Origin: Methanobacteriota archaeon
GTDB taxonomy: Archaea > Halobacteriota > Bog-38 > Methanoflorentales > Methanoflorentaceae
DNA length: 64,000 nucleotides
Reading direction: 5' to 3'
Assembly: GCA_963719035.1 (NCBI GenBank)
Contig: CAVRAO010000012.1
Span: 128,001 to 192,000 of the forward strand
Part shown: positions 9,680 through 55,812 of the stretch, piece by piece
Layout: every line of letters starts with the position of its first letter
How positions within the stretch are numbered: position 1 is the first letter of the stretch
Notes under the pieces: generated by a model
Told to the model about the DNA's origin: nothing
The model's input: the letters and a program-made list of their open reading frames with translations, nothing else
Databases searched by the model: none
Translations under genes and position numbers: made by a program

Positions 9680-10552
9680 GCGAACTTGTGTTTTTGTGCG
9701 TTTCTTATTCAGTCACTTCTTCACTATCGTACTAAAGTAGGTATGCGAGGATTTATCATATTTCCAAGGTCGTCGACGCTCTAGCATAAAAACTACAAGT
9801 GATTTCACTGTTTTCCTCCCGTGAAGAGACACTTGGACCAGTTTAATCTTATGGTAACTTGGCAAGGTATTGGTAGGAGCATATCTTGTACCTTCGCTGA
9901 ACTCGCTAGATAAGCGTTTCATTAGAAGGCTAAGATAGCGTTTAAAAAGGAATTAATCGCTATTAGCTTTTTAGATCCTGTGGACTCTACCGAGCAATGC
10001 AGTATGAACTATTATGGGTGTGCACATCCCCTAGGTCATACTAGTCTAAGGTTGCCTCCTACTTGGGTATGACTCATTGAGGAGCCTAGGTCGCCTCTGT
10101 CATGTTAAATCGAGATTAACCCTCATCTGGGCATTTCAAAAGAGTACGCAGCCTTCCACTAAAAGGTTTCCACCATTTCCTGTGCAACGGCTTCGTAGGT
10201 TAGGTTATAACTAATGTTTTCAAGAGCTTTAATCTTAAAAATAGCAAATTATTAAGATCCTTTAATTATTCTAAGGTTATTTTTAGTCATATAATTAAAA
10301 TAGAGCCCATTATGACTTTTTTTAGCATCGCTCGCTGGGCGCATGTGAGACGGCAGTCGAAATGGAGCTAGAAAATATTTAAAAAGACGCCAGGGGGCCC
10401 GTTGGACGGTGCTTCCAATGGAACCTTAGCGGCTTTCGAATTCATATGTAGATATACGCTGGACTTCGCGCATTTATAAAAAGAAGGGCATCTTGGCTAT
10501 AGTAAACCTTTATTTCTAGTCCAGATTTCCAAACGGAAGTCAAAATGGAACC

Positions 10553-10567
10553 GAAATCGTTAAATAT
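10553..10567 (+). promoter_or_regulatory. Archaeal BRE/TATA promoter of the hairpin RNA, copy 1
   Basis: GAAATCG-TTAAATAT, identical in copy 2, about 25 nt upstream of a GATGC initiator-like site. Confidence 0.65.
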
Positions 10568-10588
10568 AACTCTTACAGTGTTTAATTC

Positions 10589-10675
10589 GTCGATGCTGGA
10601 GAGCGAGGGCCCGCTGTGTGGCCCTACCTCGAACCGTCTTTTAAATGCATGCGGCGGACCCCGCTCTGTATTGAC
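10589..10675 (+). ncRNA. Candidate small hairpin RNA, copy 1
   Basis: gtcgatgc/gtattgac, agagcg/cgctct, ggg/ccc, ccgctgtgtg/catgcggcgg; loop gccctacctcgaaccgtcttttaaatg. Confidence 0.65.
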
Positions 10676-10764
10676 TAAAGAAGTTATTATGGATGCCTCT
10701 TAAAGCGTGCGCAGCATTTTAAATTGCGTTTAACGTCTATAGCGCAATTGGCACGTTGAAGAGC

Positions 10765-11493
10765 TTATCCTGTTTTTTGTACCGTTCCAACTCCTGTGAT
10801 CTGCTGATGAACCTCAGGGCTACCGTGGTACCTCACGGAACCAGTTCCTGTTATGCTGACGTCTAAGCTTTTCGTCACGGTCACTTCAGCTGAACCAGCT
10901 CCTTCTATTTTAATTGAAGTCGTGTCGGTGGCGAGTTCGGAACTTCTTAGACTTCCCACGCCGGTTAATACTGCGGTGTGATTAGTTGCGTTGCCACGCA
11001 AGTTTGCGGTACCTGCGCCCGAAATCCGCGTTGTGAGTTGCGTCGTGTTAAGATGGATGTTGAACGTGCCGGCACCTTGCAGCGTAAGGTTCAACGCGTT
11101 TGTGGTCAGTAGAGAGTCGCTTATTACGGTTCCTGCCCCGTCATTGTTTATCCCATCGATGGCTGAGAGCGACACGTAGACGTTGATAGGTTTGGTCGTC
11201 ACTATCGGTTGCGCAGCGTCCACGGTTAAGATGCCGTTCGAGACCTCCGTTCGAATGCGCGAAATAACGTCGCTTTCTGCATCAACTTTTACCGACTGTG
11301 CATCGCTTTGAGTCACGCGTAGCGTGCCCGGAACAGCAAAGTTGACGCTTGTAAACGTAGCGACGTTCCTTGTTTCTGTAGCCATTGTCCCAGATCCTTT
11401 GCTTTGGTTTGTTGTGATCTGAACGCACCCGCTAATGAGAATGACGCTTGTTAGTGCTACTGTTAACACATATGCTGCCTTCATTCTCGCCAC
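10765..11493 (-). CDS. Lipoprotein with head GIN / DUF2807 beta-helix repeats
   Basis: Lipobox-like ISGC; repeated GAG/GTG turn motifs. Confidence 0.85.
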   Translation of the reverse strand: MARMKAAYVLTVALTSVILISGCVQITTNQSKGSGTMATETRNVATFTSVNFAVPGTLRVTQSDAQSVKVDAESDVISRIRTEVSNGILTVDAAQPIVTTKPINVYVSLSAIDGINNDGAGTVISDSLLTTNALNLTLQGAGTFNIHLNTTQLTTRISGAGTANLRGNATNHTAVLTGVGSLRSSELATDTTSIKIEGAGSAEVTVTKSLDVSITGTGSVRYHGSPEVHQQITGVGTVQKTG

Positions 11494-49428: not shown

Positions 49429-50766
49429 TTAACCACTGCTCGCGACACTGACGTCAGTTACGCGAATCGTTGGCGTCGTCAATCCAAAGTACGTCTTGGC
49501 ATCTCGACTCAGCCCATCGATCTGCTTCAGCAAATCGAGGACGTTGATTCCTATGTTCGTTTGTTTCAGAGCGTGTTTGCGTTCGCCGTTTTCGATGGAA
49601 TATCCCGCGTACACCATACCGGAGAACTCCCCTGTACTCATGTTCGGGTGATCGCCTGTTGCGCGGACATAGATACCACGTCGCACGTCCTTAATAACAT
49701 CAGCCTCGTGACCATTTGCGATTATTAGATTTGTCGAAGAAATTGAAGGCGGTTGTCGATAGTCTCCCCGAGAGGCGTTTCCTGTGCTCATCTTGTCTTC
49801 TTTGTTTGCAGTATAACTGTCGTATAGATATGAACATAAGACGCCATTTTCGATGAGGGGGGTCCGCTGTGATGGCACGCCTTCCGCATCAAACGGGCTC
49901 GTCTCAAAACCGCCCTTTAGGAGCCCATCATCAACGAGCGTGAAACCGTTTATAGTGATCTGTTCGCCGATTTTTCCCGTAAGGAACGACCGATCTCGTT
50001 GTGCATCATCGGCGCTCACGGCTGTAGCAGCGGCGATAACCGGTCCCACAGCAAGTGGGTCAAAAACGACCGGCATCTTGCCCGATTGAATCGGCTGTGG
50101 ATTCATGCTACTCAGTGCCATCTCTCCTGCGGTACGCCCGACTAACTCGATGTCTAAATCGAGGCGCCGAGACGCAGCATACTCGAAGCCATTCCCACTG
50201 GCGTCTCTCTCGTGTGCAACAACGTCCACGTCGATTGCCGCTTGCGTCCCACTGTCTGTCCCTACCACCCCGAGCGTATTTGCGATGGCATCACTAAACA
50301 GTCCGACTGATGCACCAGAATTGATGATGTCGACGCGCTTATCAATGCGGGAAGCGTCGGCTACGTCAATGGCAAACTGCACTACGGTTGCGACATCGAG
50401 AGATGCGATTGTACGATCCCAAGTGTCGGACACAGTTGGGTAGCTCTCGGGGAGCGAAAGAGACTTAAAATCCTTATCAGGGCTCCCCGCGCGTGCTGCC
50501 GAGATCGCCTTTTCGACAGCGAATTCAACCCGTTCGAGAGATGCGTGCGCGTAGCCCATGCTGCCCTTCTTAAAGACCCGAACGCCAATGCCACACTCGA
50601 AGCCGCTTTGACTCGATTTGATATGTCCTTTTTCGAGCTCTGCGCTAATAGAGTTCGAATGGGTGGCGAACGCCTCTCCTTGATAGATTGATGTGTCTAT
50701 GAGCGCCAATGCCTGGATACAAGCGTCGAGGAGCGCGCTCTCTCGCTCAGCGGCTGTGGTCGTCAC
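49429..50766 (-). CDS. pmbA: TldE/PmbA family protein
   Basis: PFDAEG, STGNA.R, TGEFS; lacks HExxxH. Confidence 0.88.
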   Translation of the reverse strand: MTTTAAERESALLDACIQALALIDTSIYQGEAFATHSNSISAELEKGHIKSSQSGFECGIGVRVFKKGSMGYAHASLERVEFAVEKAISAARAGSPDKDFKSLSLPESYPTVSDTWDRTIASLDVATVVQFAIDVADASRIDKRVDIINSGASVGLFSDAIANTLGVVGTDSGTQAAIDVDVVAHERDASGNGFEYAASRRLDLDIELVGRTAGEMALSSMNPQPIQSGKMPVVFDPLAVGPVIAAATAVSADDAQRDRSFLTGKIGEQITINGFTLVDDGLLKGGFETSPFDAEGVPSQRTPLIENGVLCSYLYDSYTANKEDKMSTGNASRGDYRQPPSISSTNLIIANGHEADVIKDVRRGIYVRATGDHPNMSTGEFSGMVYAGYSIENGERKHALKQTNIGINVLDLLKQIDGLSRDAKTYFGLTTPTIRVTDVSVASSG

Positions 50767-52152
50767 CTATATCCCCCCGACGACAACATTGCTGACCCGC
50801 ATATAGGCCCCACCTGTGGTGTTCGGAGTCATTTGTCCGCCTTTTCCGCACGTTCCGGGCTCGAACGTCAAAGTTTGTCCTATGGCGCTGATATTATGAA
50901 GAACCTCGAGAGTCATCGCGCTCAGTGCGGCGTCTCTCAAATGATCCTGTAGTTCGCCGTGTTCGACGACGTACGCCTCTCTGCTTTTAAACGTTAGCAT
51001 CCCTGTTGTAGGAGTTGTGTAGCCATATTGCCAACCGACAAAGTATATCCCACTAAACCCGTCGAGTAGTTCCTCGAACGTATAGCCCCCAGGCTCAAAG
51101 AAGGTGTTACTCATCCGAACGATGGGCGGATCGTCATATCGCTGGGCACGCGCGCTACCGTTCGATCCTAAGCCAAGGCGCGACCCAGTCTCGACATCCG
51201 TGAGGTAGCTCTGTAGAATCCCGCGCTCCATAAGCATCTTCCGCCGCGTCCGTACACCCTCATCATCGTAGGCCAAGTAGCCATAGCTCTGCAAACTCGG
51301 ATCGTCAACAATCGTAACCGCATCAGAGCCAATCCTCTGCGTAAGCTTGCCGGCGAGGATGGACGTACCCGAAATGATCGCATCAGCTTCGGCAGCATGT
51401 CCGAATGCCTCGTGTGCAAAAACACCTGACAGCGACGGATCGAGCATGGCTTCGAACTGTCCAGATGGTGCCGGTTTTGCATCGAGAAGCGAAACTGCCT
51501 GTGATGCTGCAATTCGACCGATGTCCGCGTCGTTTGAAAACAGCTCAAATCCCTTTGAGTCGCCTCTCGCCTTATAGCCAGATTGCCGAAGTGCGCCTTC
51601 TTTGGCGAAGATCATGGCACGCGCGATCGATCGTACCACGGTCTCATCGATGTAAGTTCCCTCAGAATTTGCGATTACCTTCCGCAGCACAAGGTCACTG
51701 TAGCCGATCTCTGTACTGTTGACGCGGTCATCTGTTTCTTTAGCTTCTTGCTCTTGGTGGAGCACATAGTTGAGCTTGTCTGCGATCGAGACGTGGGTCG
51801 GTAGCCGCTGTACGGTTGGTGTCACAGTGTCTTCAAACACCGGCACATCGATTGAAAACTTTTCAGCGCGCGCAAATACAGCTTTAGCTAGACTAACTGC
51901 GCGTTCAGCGCAGTTTACCAGCCCTTTTCGATCCACTTGTGTGGTATACGCAAACCCCCACGCGCCGTCTAAAAAAGCTCTTATTCCAGCTCCGAGCTCA
52001 TTAGAGCTTTTTATCTTCGTAATTCCGTCTTTCGTTGAGATGGATGTGCCTTCGGAGCTTTCGAGTCTAATATCGGCAAATTGGGCCCCACGAGCACGTG
52101 CATTGCTGAGGGCGTCTTCAACGTCTGCCCGCTTTTCGCTTAGTTCTTGCAT
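50767..52152 (-). CDS. tldD: TldD family metalloprotease
   Basis: HEAFGH, YDDEG, RMSNT, CGK.GQ. Confidence 0.92.
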   Translation of the reverse strand: MQELSEKRADVEDALSNARARGAQFADIRLESSEGTSISTKDGITKIKSSNELGAGIRAFLDGAWGFAYTTQVDRKGLVNCAERAVSLAKAVFARAEKFSIDVPVFEDTVTPTVQRLPTHVSIADKLNYVLHQEQEAKETDDRVNSTEIGYSDLVLRKVIANSEGTYIDETVVRSIARAMIFAKEGALRQSGYKARGDSKGFELFSNDADIGRIAASQAVSLLDAKPAPSGQFEAMLDPSLSGVFAHEAFGHAAEADAIISGTSILAGKLTQRIGSDAVTIVDDPSLQSYGYLAYDDEGVRTRRKMLMERGILQSYLTDVETGSRLGLGSNGSARAQRYDDPPIVRMSNTFFEPGGYTFEELLDGFSGIYFVGWQYGYTTPTTGMLTFKSREAYVVEHGELQDHLRDAALSAMTLEVLHNISAIGQTLTFEPGTCGKGGQMTPNTTGGAYMRVSNVVVGGI

Positions 52153-53978: not shown

Positions 53979-54569
53979 TTAGAGTCTCTTTACCTCTTCT
54001 GTCTTAGGCTTACGTCGAAACAGGCGATCCCTCAATGATCGTTTCGGCGGTTCCTCATCGATCTCTGGCAGGGGTGCTTGCACTTCCTCAGCTTCTACCT
54101 CATCTTGGGTTGATTGCAAAGGTGAAGACACAGGCTGCGGTAGCAAGCGAGTAAGGGCTTCGCTTACGTCCGCGAGCCGGTCAATGACCTTGCTAGACTC
54201 ACTCCCATAGAATCCTGCAATGGTCTCATACCGTTTGATCTCATCCTCGCGCGCCAGTTTAAAGCTCTCGTACTGCGCTGTCAGCCTCTCTATCATATCC
54301 GTTTTCATGAAAAGGAGCTCTTCCTTATGATGCAGCTCCCTTTCCCGCTTTTCCAGTTCTGTTTCTAAGCGAATCACCGTGTCACGTGGCACCATTAGTG
54401 TTTCGAGGCGTTTGTCTGCAGTATGCCCATTGGCCCGTGTTGTGCCTAGATATGTGTCTAGTGCCGTAGTAACGATTTTACTCCGACTGCTATTTTCGGA
54501 CCGTGCCTGCTTATCAGCAGCGGCCAAGAGCTCGTCTGAAATGGCAATAGTAACCTTGTTTAATGGCAT
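53979..54569 (-). CDS. Ribbon-helix-helix (CopG-like) protein with a coiled-coil C-terminus
   Basis: KVTIAISDELL...D..A.....SRS.IV..AL..YL, then heptad repeats. Confidence 0.75.
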   Translation of the reverse strand: MPLNKVTIAISDELLAAADKQARSENSSRSKIVTTALDTYLGTTRANGHTADKRLETLMVPRDTVIRLETELEKRERELHHKEELLFMKTDMIERLTAQYESFKLAREDEIKRYETIAGFYGSESSKVIDRLADVSEALTRLLPQPVSSPLQSTQDEVEAEEVQAPLPEIDEEPPKRSLRDRLFRRKPKTEEVKRL

Positions 54570-54675
54570 CTAACCCCTCACAATCACAATAAAAGGGCAT
54601 ACGCGTCGTTAGCTAATTAAGTCACACCATAGTATGACCGCTTCATACTTGAGTTTATTGTGGGTCAACGGAGTT

Positions 54676-55203
54676 TTCCACTAAATGATTCGCACTATTT
54701 CCGATGCAAATTCCAAAACTTATTTTTTAAAAAAAGCTATTTTAGTGGCCTAAACGCCAAAATAACGAAAAAAAAAGCTATTTGCTAAATCTAAATCGCT
54801 TGATTACCCTTTTGAACAAACGGGACGCTTAAATAGCGTCGTTGCTACCGCTCGCTGCTTCAAGCTAAAACGGCAGTCGAAATGGAGCTGGAAACTATTT
54901 ATAACGGTTTTAGTATCATCAGCGAAATGAAATTCTTTCTGTTGGGCCCAAGAAACGAGATTGAGTCGTAAATACGGCCAGAATGTGCTTTAATTGTCAA
55001 AATAAAAATCTTAGCGCAATCGAATACCCCTATTTCGAGTCCAGATTTCAAAAAGAAGGATAAAATAGAAACGAAATCGTTAAATATTATCAAAGTGAGG
55101 TTTATTGTGTCGATGCAGCGGGAGCCGGGCCGCGCCTAAAGGCCCTACCTCAAAACGCGCTCTTTTCGTTTGGCGGGCCCGTGCTCCACGTTGGTCGTCG
55201 CAT
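54676..55203 (+). repeat. Dispersed ~530-bp non-coding element, copy 2
   Basis: Same motif blocks as 10154-10675, at an offset of 44520-44522 nt. Confidence 0.85.
55107..55203 (+). ncRNA. Candidate small hairpin RNA, copy 2
   Basis: cgatg/cgtcg, cagcg/cgttg, ggagc/gctcc, cgggcc/ggcccg, cgcc/ggcg; loop contains ggccctacctc; TATA at 55080; T-rich tract follows. Confidence 0.65.
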
Positions 55204-55245
55204 GTTTTCGATATTTTCTCTTCTTTCCTTTCGTTATACTTTTCG
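55204..55245 (+). terminator. T-rich archaeal terminator-like tract after hairpin RNA copy 2
   Basis: gttttcgatattttctcttctttcctttcg. Confidence 0.4.
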
Positions 55246-55269
55246 ATTTGTTACAGTGAGTTCTATGTG

Positions 55270-55812
55270 CTAACGACGATTCCAAAATCGCGAAAAGGTG
55301 CTCTGCGATCGAGGTGATTCTTCAAAACTGTGCATAAAAAAAAGCTTAAAGTACGAGCCGTCTATTTTTTTTCTCATGATTACCTTGAACCCTAGCCTTT
55401 CATACATAGCTAGAGCTGCTTCATTGGTCTCCCACGTAGTGATGAGTGATGCGTCCATTCCATCTTGGAAGAGCTTTGACATCGCGAATTGTACCAATTT
55501 TATTCCAATACCGATTCGTCGAAACTCAGGGAGCACTGCGAGCGTTTCTATGAGACCGAGTTGTGGGCGTCTGTAGTTATAGATGACAGCTACGACGCCA
55601 ATGACTCTCTCGCCGTCCACTGCCTTGATCCAACCCCGCCGCCTATCGTTTAAGATCCGTGTTATTTTGACGCGCAAATTCTCACCGTCGGTAAGCGGCG
55701 GCACAAACTCGTTATTGACGACGTTGAGCAGGTTGAGGATGTCGTTAAAGTCGTTCCAGTTCGCTTCACAAATTGTGAACGTCTCGAGCGGTTCCAGCAA
55801 TCGCATTACCAT
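55270..55812 (-). CDS. GNAT family N-acetyltransferase
   Basis: AV.PEFRR.GIG..L, N..A..MYE.LGF. Confidence 0.9.
   Translation of the reverse strand: MVMRLLEPLETFTICEANWNDFNDILNLLNVVNNEFVPPLTDGENLRVKITRILNDRRRGWIKAVDGERVIGVVAVIYNYRRPQLGLIETLAVLPEFRRIGIGIKLVQFAMSKLFQDGMDASLITTWETNEAALAMYERLGFKVIMRKKIDGSYFKLFFMHSFEESPRSQSTFSRFWNRR

Follow-up and report, generated by a model that had tools for sequence, protein, structure and literature searches.

Sibling small RNA genes preceded by a long upstream region of fixed geometry: a probable genus-specific family in an uncultured peat methanogen

What kind of element is a non-coding stretch that occurs twice in 64 kb of an archaeal genome, with short blocks held at constant distances while the sequence between them drifts? 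The question is raised by the window analysed here, i.e., the 64,000 nt at positions 128,001–192,000 (forward strand) of contig CAVRAO010000012.1 in assembly GCA_963719035.1, which is the 2.19-Mb, 91%-complete metagenome-assembled genome of an uncultured peat methanogen of the Bog-38/Methanoflorentaceae lineage. An initial annotation had described a duplicated module of ~530 bp, and its block counts were all reproduced: 27 of 34 positions are identical between 10154–10187 and 54676–54709 (offset exactly 44522), 9/9 in the box CGCTCGCTG (offset 44520), 30/32 in the block at 10350–10381, 48/57 in that at 10511–10567, and 8/8 in GTCGATGC, which lies at 10589–10596 in copy 1 and 55109–55116 in copy 2. 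The stretches between the blocks are heavily diverged, at 34–41% ungapped identity. The similarity of the two copies is far above chance, and a blastn search of the full 2.19-Mb genome with copy 1 returned the promoter and RNA part of copy 2 at an E-value of 4e-13. The duplication is therefore real, but its extent had been set too short; the true unit reaches from ~10035 to 10682 and from ~54621 to 55202, its 5′ edge being a cluster of inverted heptamers. Genome searches, including blastn, further located a third full copy outside the window (C12:208212–208807), a partial copy (C12:296412–296701, minus strand) and an RNA-only copy (C2:204683–204772, minus strand), and a block-by-block nhmmer search of this genome matched each box profile only at these loci.

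At the 3′ end of each copy in the window lies a small structured RNA gene on the plus strand, at 10587–10682 in copy 1 (paralogue c1; covariance-model match of 86.9 bits, E = 1.6e-20) and at 55107–55202 in copy 2 (paralogue c2; 89.7 bits, E = 2.5e-21). The RNA is modelled as one long, irregular hairpin, closed by an 8-bp helix and continued by ~14 further pairs, whose ~35-nt apical loop would hold a small U-rich hairpin and the invariant single-stranded motif G(G/C)C(C/U)U(A/G)CCUC(G/A)A. In copy 1 the hairpin spans 10589–10675, with the closing helix GUCGAUGC/GUAUUGAC and the loop motif GGCCCUACCUCGAA at 10620–10633; the loop motif of copy 2 is GGCCCUACCUCAAA at 55141–55154, and a T-run follows 3′ of that RNA at ~55205–55230. 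The predicted minimum free energies are −40.6 and −49.4 kcal/mol for copies 1 and 2, respectively. Across 61 aligned copies (57 distinct), 85.0% of the pairing cells are paired, vs. 34.8–47.7% when the partner column is slid; this alignment was fitted to the covariance model, and the unfitted seed alignment gives 84.1% vs. 38.6–46.6%. Among the 57 distinct sequences, 14 of the 24 pairs change on both sides, and 73 double-change cells were observed vs. 30.4 ± 5.3 in shuffles, none of 500 of which reached 73. The secondary structure is hence conserved through compensatory changes, including G–C to A–U double changes among c2 orthologues, while the c1 RNA is 94% identical among its own. The initial annotation had proposed a complex multi-site promoter driving a small RNA; the RNA gene is borne out by this covariation and by its genus-wide distribution, and the promoter part is retained below as a putative reading.

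The RNA is non-coding, in that no frame is open in all orthologues, consistent with the earlier statement that the copies share no open reading frame; the loop differs between orthologues by indels of 1–2 nt, and an AUG-initiated frame at the RNA start stops after eight codons in copy 2. Recurrent open frames occur only where the underlying sequence is conserved, and none is universal. At the gathering score, Rfam 15 gave no match in the 64-kb window or in the third copy, so the known classes considered (C/D, H/ACA, SRP, RNase P, HEARO/omega RNA and tRNA) were rejected, none reaching its threshold. In E-value mode the best matches to both copies scored 11–18 bits (E = 1.2–6.3), none of them overlapping the RNA; ARAGORN found no tRNA or tmRNA, and inspection by eye found no RUGAUGA/CUGA boxes, ACA box or K-turn in the RNA. 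A search for literature on Methanoflorens together with non-coding RNA found nothing, and the listed titles and abstract openings of the Bog-38 methanogen literature contain no study of an RNA gene. The RNA family is previously undescribed.

How far does this family extend? The covariance model R1 finds five copies in this genome (58–90 bits), i.e., five sibling genes, and zero to six copies in each of 17 other genomes of the genus, with at least one in 16 of the 17; complete relatives have six. No RNA copy was found by covariance model in six sister-genus genomes or in 140 other genomes of the phylum, and in the sister genus neither R1 nor R2 gave a match even at E ≤ 5; at the syntenic GNAT–DUF2284 locus of the sister genus, the intergenic gap is merely 110 nt. 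Six bacterial matches among 33 matches to the RNA pattern were dismissed as chance, since five have no model match at E ≤ 1; the sixth reaches 11 bits, covering the model only in part, and the upstream boxes occur in none of the six. The siblings share a single-stranded motif and diverge elsewhere: the stems of the paralogues differ and covary while the loop core CYURCCUCRA is kept in six paralogue types, apart from two single-base deviations in the 61 aligned copies. Three of the five genes, two of them inside the window, keep the whole upstream unit. Paralogues c5 and c6 lack it entirely, so the RNA as such can do without the unit, and in one species the RNA of the c1 copy is cut off after ~20 nt, so that a single copy seems dispensable. 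Four of the five copies converge with the next gene. The flanking genes are unrelated between copies, as had been noted; housekeeping genes stand at each locus, no neighbour gene is shared, and the two 403-aa open reading frames upstream of copies are unrelated to each other.

Multiple, dispersed copies confined to one genus could also be domesticated remnants of a mobile element, e.g., an IS200/IS605-type element that carries no genes, ends in hairpins and resembles a guide RNA at its 3′ end, and the copies do have sub-terminal inverted repeats at the left edge, a structured RNA at the right edge and differing sequence beyond the hairpin. However, in this 91%-complete genome the best match to TnpB (PF07282) scores 21.9 bits, below the 26.3-bit cut-off, and the Y1 transposase (PF01797) has no match, whereas as positive controls the two profiles matched in 8/14 and 6/14 genomes, respectively; the features of an IS200/IS605 element or omega RNA were not found. 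The unit shows no similarity to phage and plasmid records, viral contigs contain no match to the RNA pattern, and the 118 viral matches to a 15-base word of block G score ~13 bits by the block profile vs. 66–72 bits for true copies. Each paralogue moreover occupies the same locus across species, and the paralogues are only ~60–70% alike, indicating that the duplications are old and the copies under purifying selection; the three unit-bearing paralogues diverged before the genus radiation. The mobile-element reading is thus largely refuted and hardly credible, and the concern that the module might be the end of a known insertion sequence or provirus found no IS, phage or plasmid link.

We therefore return to the family of sibling RNA genes and to the DNA that precedes them. 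Two BRE/TATA promoter-like elements in tandem make up the upstream unit together with six or more further conserved boxes. The blocks, the box CGCTCGCTG and the promoter-like elements lie on the plus strand, and the heptamer clusters, the spacer and boxes E2 and F have no assigned strand. Outermost is the cluster of GTCATAC/GTATGAC-type heptamers, conserved in orthologues and spanning 10035–10128 in copy 1 (10035–10042, 10065–10073 and 10099–10106, with weaker ones at 10110–10128); the arms of its innermost pair change together in orthologues, and nhmmer matches the heptamer block only at the three full copies. In copy 2, the sequence of the cluster is GTCACACC–AGTATGAC–TTCATACT (54621–54649), and an 8-bp inverted repeat is kept in c2 orthologues with one A–T to C–G double change. 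Block A (CCTTCCACTaaaaGGTTTCCAccaTTTCCtGTGCAAcgg, with three TTCC-containing sub-sites) follows at 10152–10190 in copy 1 and, by similarity to copy 1 and nhmmer, at 54675–54710 in copy 2; its mean pairwise identity is 82% among 10 orthologues, and its profile matches exclusively at the three full copies (E = 1e-9 to 2e-8). A poorly conserved spacer of fixed length (10191–10328 in copy 1), with semi-conserved small boxes at ~10236–10249 (AAAAATAGCAAA) and ~10297–10309 (AAATAGAGCCC), leads to the box CGCTCGCTG (10329–10337), which is conserved in c1 and c2 orthologues but not in c3. The distal promoter-like element P1 consists of the box ACGGCAGTCGAAATGGAGCT and the BRE/TATA AGAAAATATTTAAAA (10350–10384; nhmmer E = 1e-14 to 9e-16, exclusively at the three full copies), and the corresponding series in copy 2, i.e., CGCTCGCTG (54849–54857), the ACGGCAGTCGAAATGGAGCT box and the BRE/TATA GGAAACTATTTATAA, spans 54849–54904. 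Downstream of P1 in copy 1, box E2 (10410–10433) is a near-palindrome, TTCCAATGGAA (10413–10423), followed by CCTTAGCGGC, and is conserved in the orthologues of c1, c3 and c4 but degenerate in those of c2. Box F (CTGGACtTCGCGCATTTa) with an A-run (10459–10484) is conserved among c1 orthologues, the A-run in c1–c4. Block G (ACCTTTATTTCTAGTCCAGATTTCC … AGTCAAAATGGAACC) finally runs into the BRE/TATA CGAAATCGTTAAATATA (10552–10568) of the proximal element P2, together spanning 10506–10568 in copy 1 and 55026–55088 in copy 2 (P2, CGAAATCGTTAAATATT); its profile matches c1–c4 only (E = 8e-20 to 4e-18).

The distances between these boxes are nearly constant across three paralogue groups. TATA2 lies 41 nt from the block-G core in 32/32 loci, block G 145–147 nt from TATA1 in 31/31, and block G 362–366 nt from block A in 32/32; the spacer measures 137–139 nt in all 30 loci of three paralogue groups, at a GC content anywhere from 0.24 to 0.53. 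Over three paralogues, the two sequence-variable spacers, of 138 and ~120 nt, differ in length by no more than 2 nt. At 62% identity, gap openings in the spacer number 0.15 per 100 nt vs. 3.1–3.5 in the flanks, and over the whole unit 0–0.6 vs. 2.7–3.5 in flanks of similar identity. The anchor distances of 41, 147 and 188 bp are near whole helical turns. The fixed spacing first claimed from two copies thus holds over 30–32 loci in three paralogue groups, rather than becoming variable, and such retention of length while sequence varies suggests that several proteins form a complex on the DNA under spatial constraint.

The proximal element is a candidate promoter of the RNA gene. Its BRE/TATA, ~25 nt upstream, resembles the tRNA promoters of this genome, suggesting, as proposed earlier, a promoter ahead of a small RNA: CGAAATCGTTAAATAT ends 22 nt upstream of GTCGATGC in both copies and resembles the AAAG/GAAA and TTTAWATA elements upstream of the tRNA genes, the BRE/TATA being centred ~26 nt before the first base of the hairpin in c1–c4. 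The TATA boxes are near-consensus, and an ATGC-type motif stands at the predicted start. P1, in tandem with P2 at 188 bp, also resembles the host tRNA promoters, and by its position would start transcription near 10402 in copy 1. This raises the possibility that transcription covers the region from P1 to the hairpin, or the entire unit, so that the boxes act as RNA, within a ~280-nt precursor or a second non-coding RNA from ~10402, with P2 as an internal or secondary start. P1 is indeed a good BRE/TATA in plus orientation, no run of five or more T interrupts the P1–P2 interval, the stretch directly after P1 (10382–10435) is 84% conserved among c1 orthologues, and the inverted heptamer repeat changes on both sides in 5/5 pairs, as an RNA hairpin would. 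However, consensus folding (alifold) from the P1 start to P2 is weak (c1, −22.5 kcal/mol with three covarying pairs; c2, −8.8 kcal/mol with one), the E2 near-palindrome shows uncompensated changes on one side, the sequence after P1 in c2 is unlike those of c1 and c3, constant length combined with drifting sequence and GC content is unusual for variable regions of RNAs, and the heptamer cluster is further upstream than P1, where no promoter was found ahead of it. An all-against-all scan of column pairs found only the heptamer inverted repeat and trivial GAAAT/ATTTC complements between boxes, although its sensitivity is limited, as the known hairpin used as a control was recovered only partly. 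Given this weak consensus folding and the lack of a conserved open reading frame in the upstream part, the boxes are read as acting at the DNA level; that they could instead work within a P1-derived transcript we regard as unlikely. A pairing between the RNA loop and block G (CUCGAAA/TTTCGAG) was considered separately and dropped because it does not covary between paralogues.

If the boxes act as DNA, they may be bound by Orc1/Cdc6, and the unit may then be an extra origin or a site coupling sRNA transcription to the initiator. The initial annotation had called one box loosely ORB-like, and TTCCAATGGAA does resemble a mini-ORB: the Pyrococcus mini-ORB given in PMC1904270 is TTCCAGTGGAACT, which E2 (TTCCAATGGAACC) matches at 11/13 positions. 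The host oriC beside cdc6 carries TTTCCAATGGAG, TTTCCTATGGAAA and TTTCCACTG; block A contains TTCCACT and GTTTCCAC, c4 carries TTCCAGTGGAG at the same position, and TTCCANTGGA is rare in the host genome. However, its count of ~13 vs. ~17 expected is not above chance, and genomes G010 and G017 do not keep the exact TTCCAATGGAG at oriC. In the genus, the conserved ORBs at oriC include a G-string (CAAACATGGGGGG) and are accompanied by an AT-rich unwinding tract that is likewise conserved, whereas the unit is without the G-string, as had been noted, and its AT-rich tract after the first block, present in this genome (GC 0.23 and 0.32), is not kept in other species, where the spacer reaches a GC content of 0.53. 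Nor is an initiator gene adjacent: the host orc1/cdc6 genes lie at C11:24893–25975 and C12:307768–308817, so that the nearest copy (c4) is 11 kb and the window copies 125–170 kb away, and in two closed relatives the copies are separated from cdc6-1 by 137–317 kb and from cdc6-2 by 14 kb or more. Along the 322-kb contig, GC skew has no informative inflection, and a lone Pyrococcus mini-ORB outside oriC was not bound in vivo (PMC1904270). With neither an adjacent initiator gene nor inverted G-string ORBs flanking a conserved AT-rich unwinding element, the origin reading is poorly supported and Orc1/Cdc6 binding very improbable.

We consider it probable that these loci are sibling sRNA genes, a family specific to the genus, whose control region of fixed geometry is probably bound by protein. 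Each copy would be a stand-alone non-coding gene for an RNA of ~95 nt, or up to ~125 nt with a 3′ tail, preceded by ~560 bp of conserved control DNA. P2, and probably also P1, would drive its transcription, and the other boxes would be putative sites for one or more DNA-binding proteins; because these would assemble into a complex of fixed geometry, the distances would be held within ±2 bp while the sequence drifts. The RNA may work in trans, by way of its loop motif. Within the loop stands ACCUC, which is also the core of the 3′ end of 16S rRNA (GAUCACCUCCU in the host genome), and by this 5-nt identity with the anti-Shine–Dalgarno core it could mask ribosome-binding sites; alternatively, it could bind a protein. 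A genome-wide search for complements of the loop motif (up to two mismatches in 14 nt) gave 10 non-self matches with no evident link to translation starts. A switch in which the 5′ strand pairs with the loop motif is speculation, being possible in c1, c2, c3 and c5 and inconsistent in c4 and c6. A bolder version of the model, which we hold to be doubtful, makes the upstream unit a nucleoprotein scaffold of at least eight boxes positioned to ±2 bp over >500 bp, on which an oligomeric wrapping or looping regulator, possibly of Orc1/Cdc6 type acting via the mini-ORB-like boxes, switches the tandem promoters, with the sRNA loop mimicking the anti-Shine–Dalgarno sequence.

This lineage is a peat methane producer, and to our knowledge almost no regulatory RNAs have been described from uncultured methanogens. 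A family that is strongly conserved, present in several copies and spread through the genus, with promoter-like elements close to the consensus, probably matters to the cell. The control region is the more unusual part, since archaeal promoters are generally compact, with a BRE/TATA and one or two nearby operator sites, and it offers an approachable case for long-range promoter architecture in archaea. If the scaffold model were true, an archaeon would possess an enhancer-like control region that acts over a long range and depends on phase, and if the loop mimics the anti-Shine–Dalgarno sequence, the family would regulate translation globally.

Four known systems invite comparison. Like archaeal origins, the unit has TTCC…GGAA near-palindromes, an AT-rich tract between boxes (in the host genome) and constrained multi-site spacing; unlike them, it has no adjacent orc1/cdc6, no G-string ORB and no conserved AT-rich tract, and three to four of its copies are grouped in ~160 kb to one side of the true oriC. 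The rRNA and tRNA operons of methanogens and haloarchaea have tandem BRE/TATA promoters ahead of stable RNAs, and here too two apparently strong BRE/TATA elements stand in tandem before an RNA gene, but the product is a 95-nt hairpin and further conserved boxes, at fixed distances, continue for 330 bp on the upstream side of the distal promoter.

The closest archaeal parallels are sRNA154, sRNA41 and sRNA162 of Methanosarcina mazei, which are likewise stand-alone intergenic genes for stable, genus-restricted hairpins of ~100 nt. Their conserved loops act on mRNAs, with sRNA154 loop 2 and sRNA41 masking ribosome-binding sites (review PMC5867862), whereas loop action is only proposed here. There is no sequence or Rfam relationship to the M. 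mazei sRNAs, and five to six paralogues here share a common loop motif. We know of no described counterpart of the ~560-bp conserved upstream region among the M. mazei sRNAs. The Qrr1–5 RNAs of Vibrio are dispersed paralogues of ~100 nt with an identical seed region, their own promoters and conserved upstream activator sites within ~150 bp. Although they belong to another domain of life with another transcription machinery, they resemble the present family in their dispersed paralogues, shared motif and conserved upstream boxes, which extend here over 560 bp rather than ~150 bp.

The initial annotation had described a non-coding module present twice in the window, and this observation was correct, since every figure given for it was reproduced. 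In a gapless comparison, the block at 10154–10187 of copy 1 (c1) is identical to copy 2 (c2) at 27 of 34 positions with an offset of 44522, and CGCTCGCTG is identical at 9 of 9 with an offset of 44520. The blocks at 10350–10381 and 10511–10567 match at 30/32 and 48/57 positions, GTCGATGC (10589–10596 and 55109–55116) matches at 8/8, and the diverged stretches between blocks show 34–41% identity. Spacer lengths are nevertheless kept, as a MAFFT alignment of the two copies is almost gapless between the blocks. The AT-rich tract described after the first block is indeed present in both copies (GC 0.23 and 0.32), but it is not conserved in other species. A blastn search of all 13 contigs of the assembly (2.19 Mb; the window is C12:128001–192000) with c1 (unit at window 10035–10682) and c2 (54621–55202) returned three further relatives: a third full unit, c3 (C12:208212–208807), a minus-strand unit without the distal part, c4 (C12:296412–296701), and the last ~90 nt only, c5, also on the minus strand (C2:204683–204772). 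Six paralogue types occur among the RNA copies of the genus, the sixth of which, c6, is absent from the source genome but present in relatives, 1–1.8 kb downstream of c3; the locus of any given paralogue is the same in the different species. Separately, identical ~66-nt contexts in the source genome (C2:773830 and C4:19272; C2:782672 and C4:28125; C5:28795 and C12:71251) suggest that parts of its larger contigs recur in small ones, via repeats or assembly redundancy.

A small RNA had been suspected, and the 3′ end of each copy proved to be a covarying hairpin belonging to a genus-wide family. In every copy, the GC-rich sequence that follows the second TATA-like box has a single long hairpin as its fold (MFE −35 to −49 kcal/mol for 106–115-nt stretches), whose stems vary in sequence between copies with pairing retained. 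The structure was drawn by hand as an 8-bp closing helix, 14 further pairs and a 2-bp loop hairpin. In an unfitted alignment of 16 sequences, 84.1% of pairing cells are paired, vs. 38.6–46.6% when the 3′ partner is slid by 1–3 columns; the corresponding values are 85.0% vs. 34.8–47.7% for 61 copies (57 distinct, four loci having been fetched twice) in an alignment that was fitted to the model and so favours the structure, although the unfitted test points in the same direction. Across these 61 copies, 14 of 24 pairs show changes on both sides, and there are 73 double-change cells, a value reached by none of 500 shuffles, which average 30.4 ± 5.3. Nearly all copies retain the loop-motif core C(C/U)U(A/G)CCUC(G/A)A (2 of 61 differ, at one position each), which extends with its 5′ flank to G(G/C)C(C/U)U(A/G)CCUC(G/A)A; a small hairpin with a U-rich loop follows on its 3′ side. 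These alignments show a family of conserved hairpin RNAs whose stems covary and whose loop motif is invariant, under genus-wide purifying selection. The RNA had no match in Rfam 15, in either gathering-score or E-value mode, and ARAGORN found no tRNA. It is non-coding: as the initial annotation held, no ORF is shared, the orthologues have no common frame and carry 1–2-nt indels in the loop, and in c2 the frame from the AUG at the RNA start ends after 8 codons.

A covariance model built from the hand-drawn structure (R1) retrieved exactly the five copies in the source genome, at 57.7–89.7 bits, and 1–6 copies in 16 of the 17 remaining genomes of the genus; the seventeenth, which has none, is 61% complete. 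R1 found none in 6 sister-genus genomes, no further matches in the class (which consists of these 24 genomes only) and, with stricter filters, none in 140 genomes from 65 other genera of the phylum. A second model, R2, gave no match at E ≤ 5 in any of four genomes from the sister genus, and where synteny would place c2, that genus has a gap of just 110 nt. A scan for the pattern in a single genome of each species gave 33 matches, of which 27 fall in MAGs of archaea from this peat lineage; the other six, all bacterial, were rejected, as they have no upstream boxes and five have no model match at E ≤ 1. The absence of the RNA from the genomes searched outside the genus, together with the single locus of each paralogue, indicates that the family arose, or became recognisable, in the genus ancestor; duplication as a ~650-bp unit followed, and the copies were retained. 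In one species, one sibling copy is naturally truncated: its c1 unit (G008:C73:27689–30789) is intact until ~20 nt into the RNA and then passes into unrelated sequence, with five R1 matches elsewhere in that genome.

Such duplication could also reflect derivation from a mobile element, the initial annotation having allowed for the end of an IS or provirus. This reading was rejected. Within the 91%-complete source genome, TnpB gave no match at the Pfam cut-off and Y1 transposase gave none; blastn revealed no similarity of copy 1 to 50,697 phage records or of copy 2 to 72,556 plasmid records, and the RNA pattern had no match in viral contigs. A 15-base word from one upstream box, block G, did match viral contigs at least 118 times, but these matches score ~13 bits on the block profile vs. 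66–72 for true copies and are therefore due to chance.

The flanking genes are unrelated, as first described, being ordinary and different at each copy: GyrI-like and DUF2807 genes at c1, RHH-like and GNAT genes at c2, an MFS gene at c3, ftr and padR at c4, and an alpha/beta hydrolase gene at c5. Small putative DNA-binding proteins are encoded divergently from two units, namely c2 (window 53979–54569, minus strand; a 196-aa RHH/CopG-like protein at 20.1 bits, below the Pfam cut-off of 20.5) and c4 (L032:1831–2358, plus strand; a PadR-family regulator), while c1 and c3 have no such neighbour. A 69-aa ORF at 9713–9922 (minus strand) matched no family. Four of the five RNA genes are convergent with the protein gene that follows (window 10682–10765 and 55202–55270; L032:1388–1413). 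Between the 3′ end of c4 and the ftr stop codon (formylmethanofuran:H4MPT formyltransferase) there are ~25 nt, such that read-through would be antisense to ftr; the presence of ftr also agrees with an uncultured peat methanogen as the source. Upstream of the geranylgeranyl-reductase gene adjoining copy 2 are tandem TldD/PmbA-family metallopeptidase genes of 445 and 461 aa (window 49429–52152, minus strand). Outside the window, ~1.7 kb downstream of c3, where relatives have the c6 missing here, a ~4-kb segment of 63–70% GC in a ~50% GC genome (C12:210458–214404; L036:1458–5404) carries genes for a HAD/trehalose-phosphatase fusion and a GH65 glycoside phosphorylase and has the look of a horizontal acquisition.

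Upstream of the RNA, alignments of 11 c1 orthologues, 14 c2 orthologues, and c1–c4 from four genomes delimit a series of boxes. In c1, these are a cluster of inverted heptamers of the GTCATAC/GTATGAC type (10035–10128), block A (10152–10190), two small spacer boxes (~10236–10249 and ~10297–10309), CGCTCGCTG (10329–10337), the putative distal promoter with its upstream box (10350–10384), the near-palindromic box E2, TTCCAATGGAA (10413–10423), box F (10459–10484), and block G running into the putative proximal promoter (10506–10568). All are present in c1, c2 and c3, except that c3 is without CGCTCGCTG; c4 has the boxes from E2 onwards, and c5 and c6 have none of them, only putative promoters of their own that differ. 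Profile searches with five boxes gave matches in the source genome confined to these loci, showing that they are not general transcription-factor sites reused elsewhere. The proximal promoter-like element P2, CGAAATCGTTAAATAT, is identical in both copies (10552–10567, 55072–55087) and ends 22 nt before GTCGATGC, placing the TATA centre ~26 nt before the base that pairs first, as is usual in archaea; it resembles elements upstream of tRNA genes of the same genome, e.g., GAAAGCTTTAATATC and AAAGCATTTATATG. The distal element P1, AGAAA(A/C)TATTTA(A/T)A (10370–10384, 54890–54904), lies 188 bp upstream of P2 in the same orientation. A sub-motif said to precede both TATA-like boxes is borne out in c1, where the 15-nt stretches preceding the two TATA elements are similar (AGTCGAAATGGAGC vs. 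AGTCAAAATGGAAC), but is weak in c2 and c3. P2, and probably P1, would transcribe the RNA.

The fixed motif spacing reported for two copies holds across up to 32 loci, including paralogues with spacers too diverged for alignment. The distance from the block-G core to the P2 TATA box is 41 nt in 32/32 loci, that from the P1 TATA box to block G is 145–147 nt in all 31 loci with a regex-detected P1 TATA box, and that from block A to block G is 362–366 nt in 32/32 (9 c1, 13 c2, 10 c3); these counts omit two c1 orthologues without an anchor-regex match and one c2 locus identical over the 90-nt de-duplication window. The spacer from block A to CGCTCGCTG measures 137–139 nt in 30/30 loci at a GC content of 0.24–0.53. 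Pairwise gap openings per 100 aligned nt amount to 0.15 in this spacer and 0 from CGCTCGCTG to the RNA in c1, and to 0.6 in the c2 spacer, vs. 2.7–3.5 in flanking intergenic DNA, at comparable identity (55–62% vs. 45–55% in the flanks). The anchor distances of 41, 147 and 188 bp are, by a post hoc comparison, close to whole helical turns at 10.5 bp/turn.

These boxes most likely act as DNA. No frame in the upstream part is open in all orthologues, and consensus folding from the predicted P1 start to P2 is weak (−22.5 kcal/mol for c1, −8.8 for c2), with three and one pairs, respectively, varying on both sides. An action at the RNA level is conceivable for the P1-proximal part of the unit. An all-against-all scan for complementary columns in 30 near-gapless sequences, in which the positive control recovered the known hairpin partly and helices with differing indels would be missed, yielded one notable helix, the inner heptamer pair GTATGA...TCATAC, with both-side changes in 5/5 pairs; its other matches are short GAAAT/ATTTC complements between conserved boxes. 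As DNA elements, the boxes are candidate protein-binding sites, at which one or more proteins would assemble into a complex of defined geometry.

One such protein could be Orc1/Cdc6, with the unit serving as an origin, an alternative already raised in the initial annotation, or as a regulator. The E2 box TTCCAATGGAACC agrees at 11 of 13 positions with the Pyrococcus mini-ORB TTCCAGTGGAACT quoted in PMC1904270; according to that paper, an identical 13-mer standing alone outside oriC was not bound in vivo. The source genome has two orc1/cdc6 genes (C11:24893–25975 and C12:307768–308817), and its likely chromosomal oriC lies outside the window, adjoining orc1/cdc6-1 (C11:25976–26633; L034:3540–4133). 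There, a G-string ORB, GCGCAAACAGGGGGGG, occurs with a strongly AT-rich tract and at least four TTTCCA-N-TG(G)A mini-ORB-like sites, one being TTTCCAATGGAG. Two closed relatives (G010, G017) share the G-string ORB, the AT-rich tract and the TTTCCACT/CAGTGGAAA sites with the source genome, but not the exact TTCCAATGGAG. Against an origin, the unit has no G-string, its AT-rich tract is not conserved, three to four units fall within ~160 kb, and in the closed relatives their distance from cdc6-1 is 137–317 kb, all on one side, and that from cdc6-2 is at least 14 kb. Moreover, TTCCANTGGA occurs ~13 times in the genome vs. ~17 expected by chance, and GC skew is uninformative. A link to Orc1/Cdc6 in either role is thus highly improbable.

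The duplicated feature is genuine, conserved and not a product of chance. The RNA is a new family of a known kind, intergenic sRNAs of archaea that occur as sibling copies. Its most striking aspect is the long upstream region with rigid spacing, for which we know of no described archaeal counterpart. The RNA may act in trans via its loop, whose ACCUC is common to the 16S rRNA 3′ end GAUCACCUCCU (taken from the rRNA operon, ahead of tRNA-Ala), which makes masking of ribosome-binding sites plausible. Binding of a protein by the loop is equally possible, and we put masking forward only tentatively, as a rather doubtful suggestion. The mode so proposed is that which PMC5867862 reports for Methanosarcina mazei sRNA154, through its loop 2, and for sRNA41.
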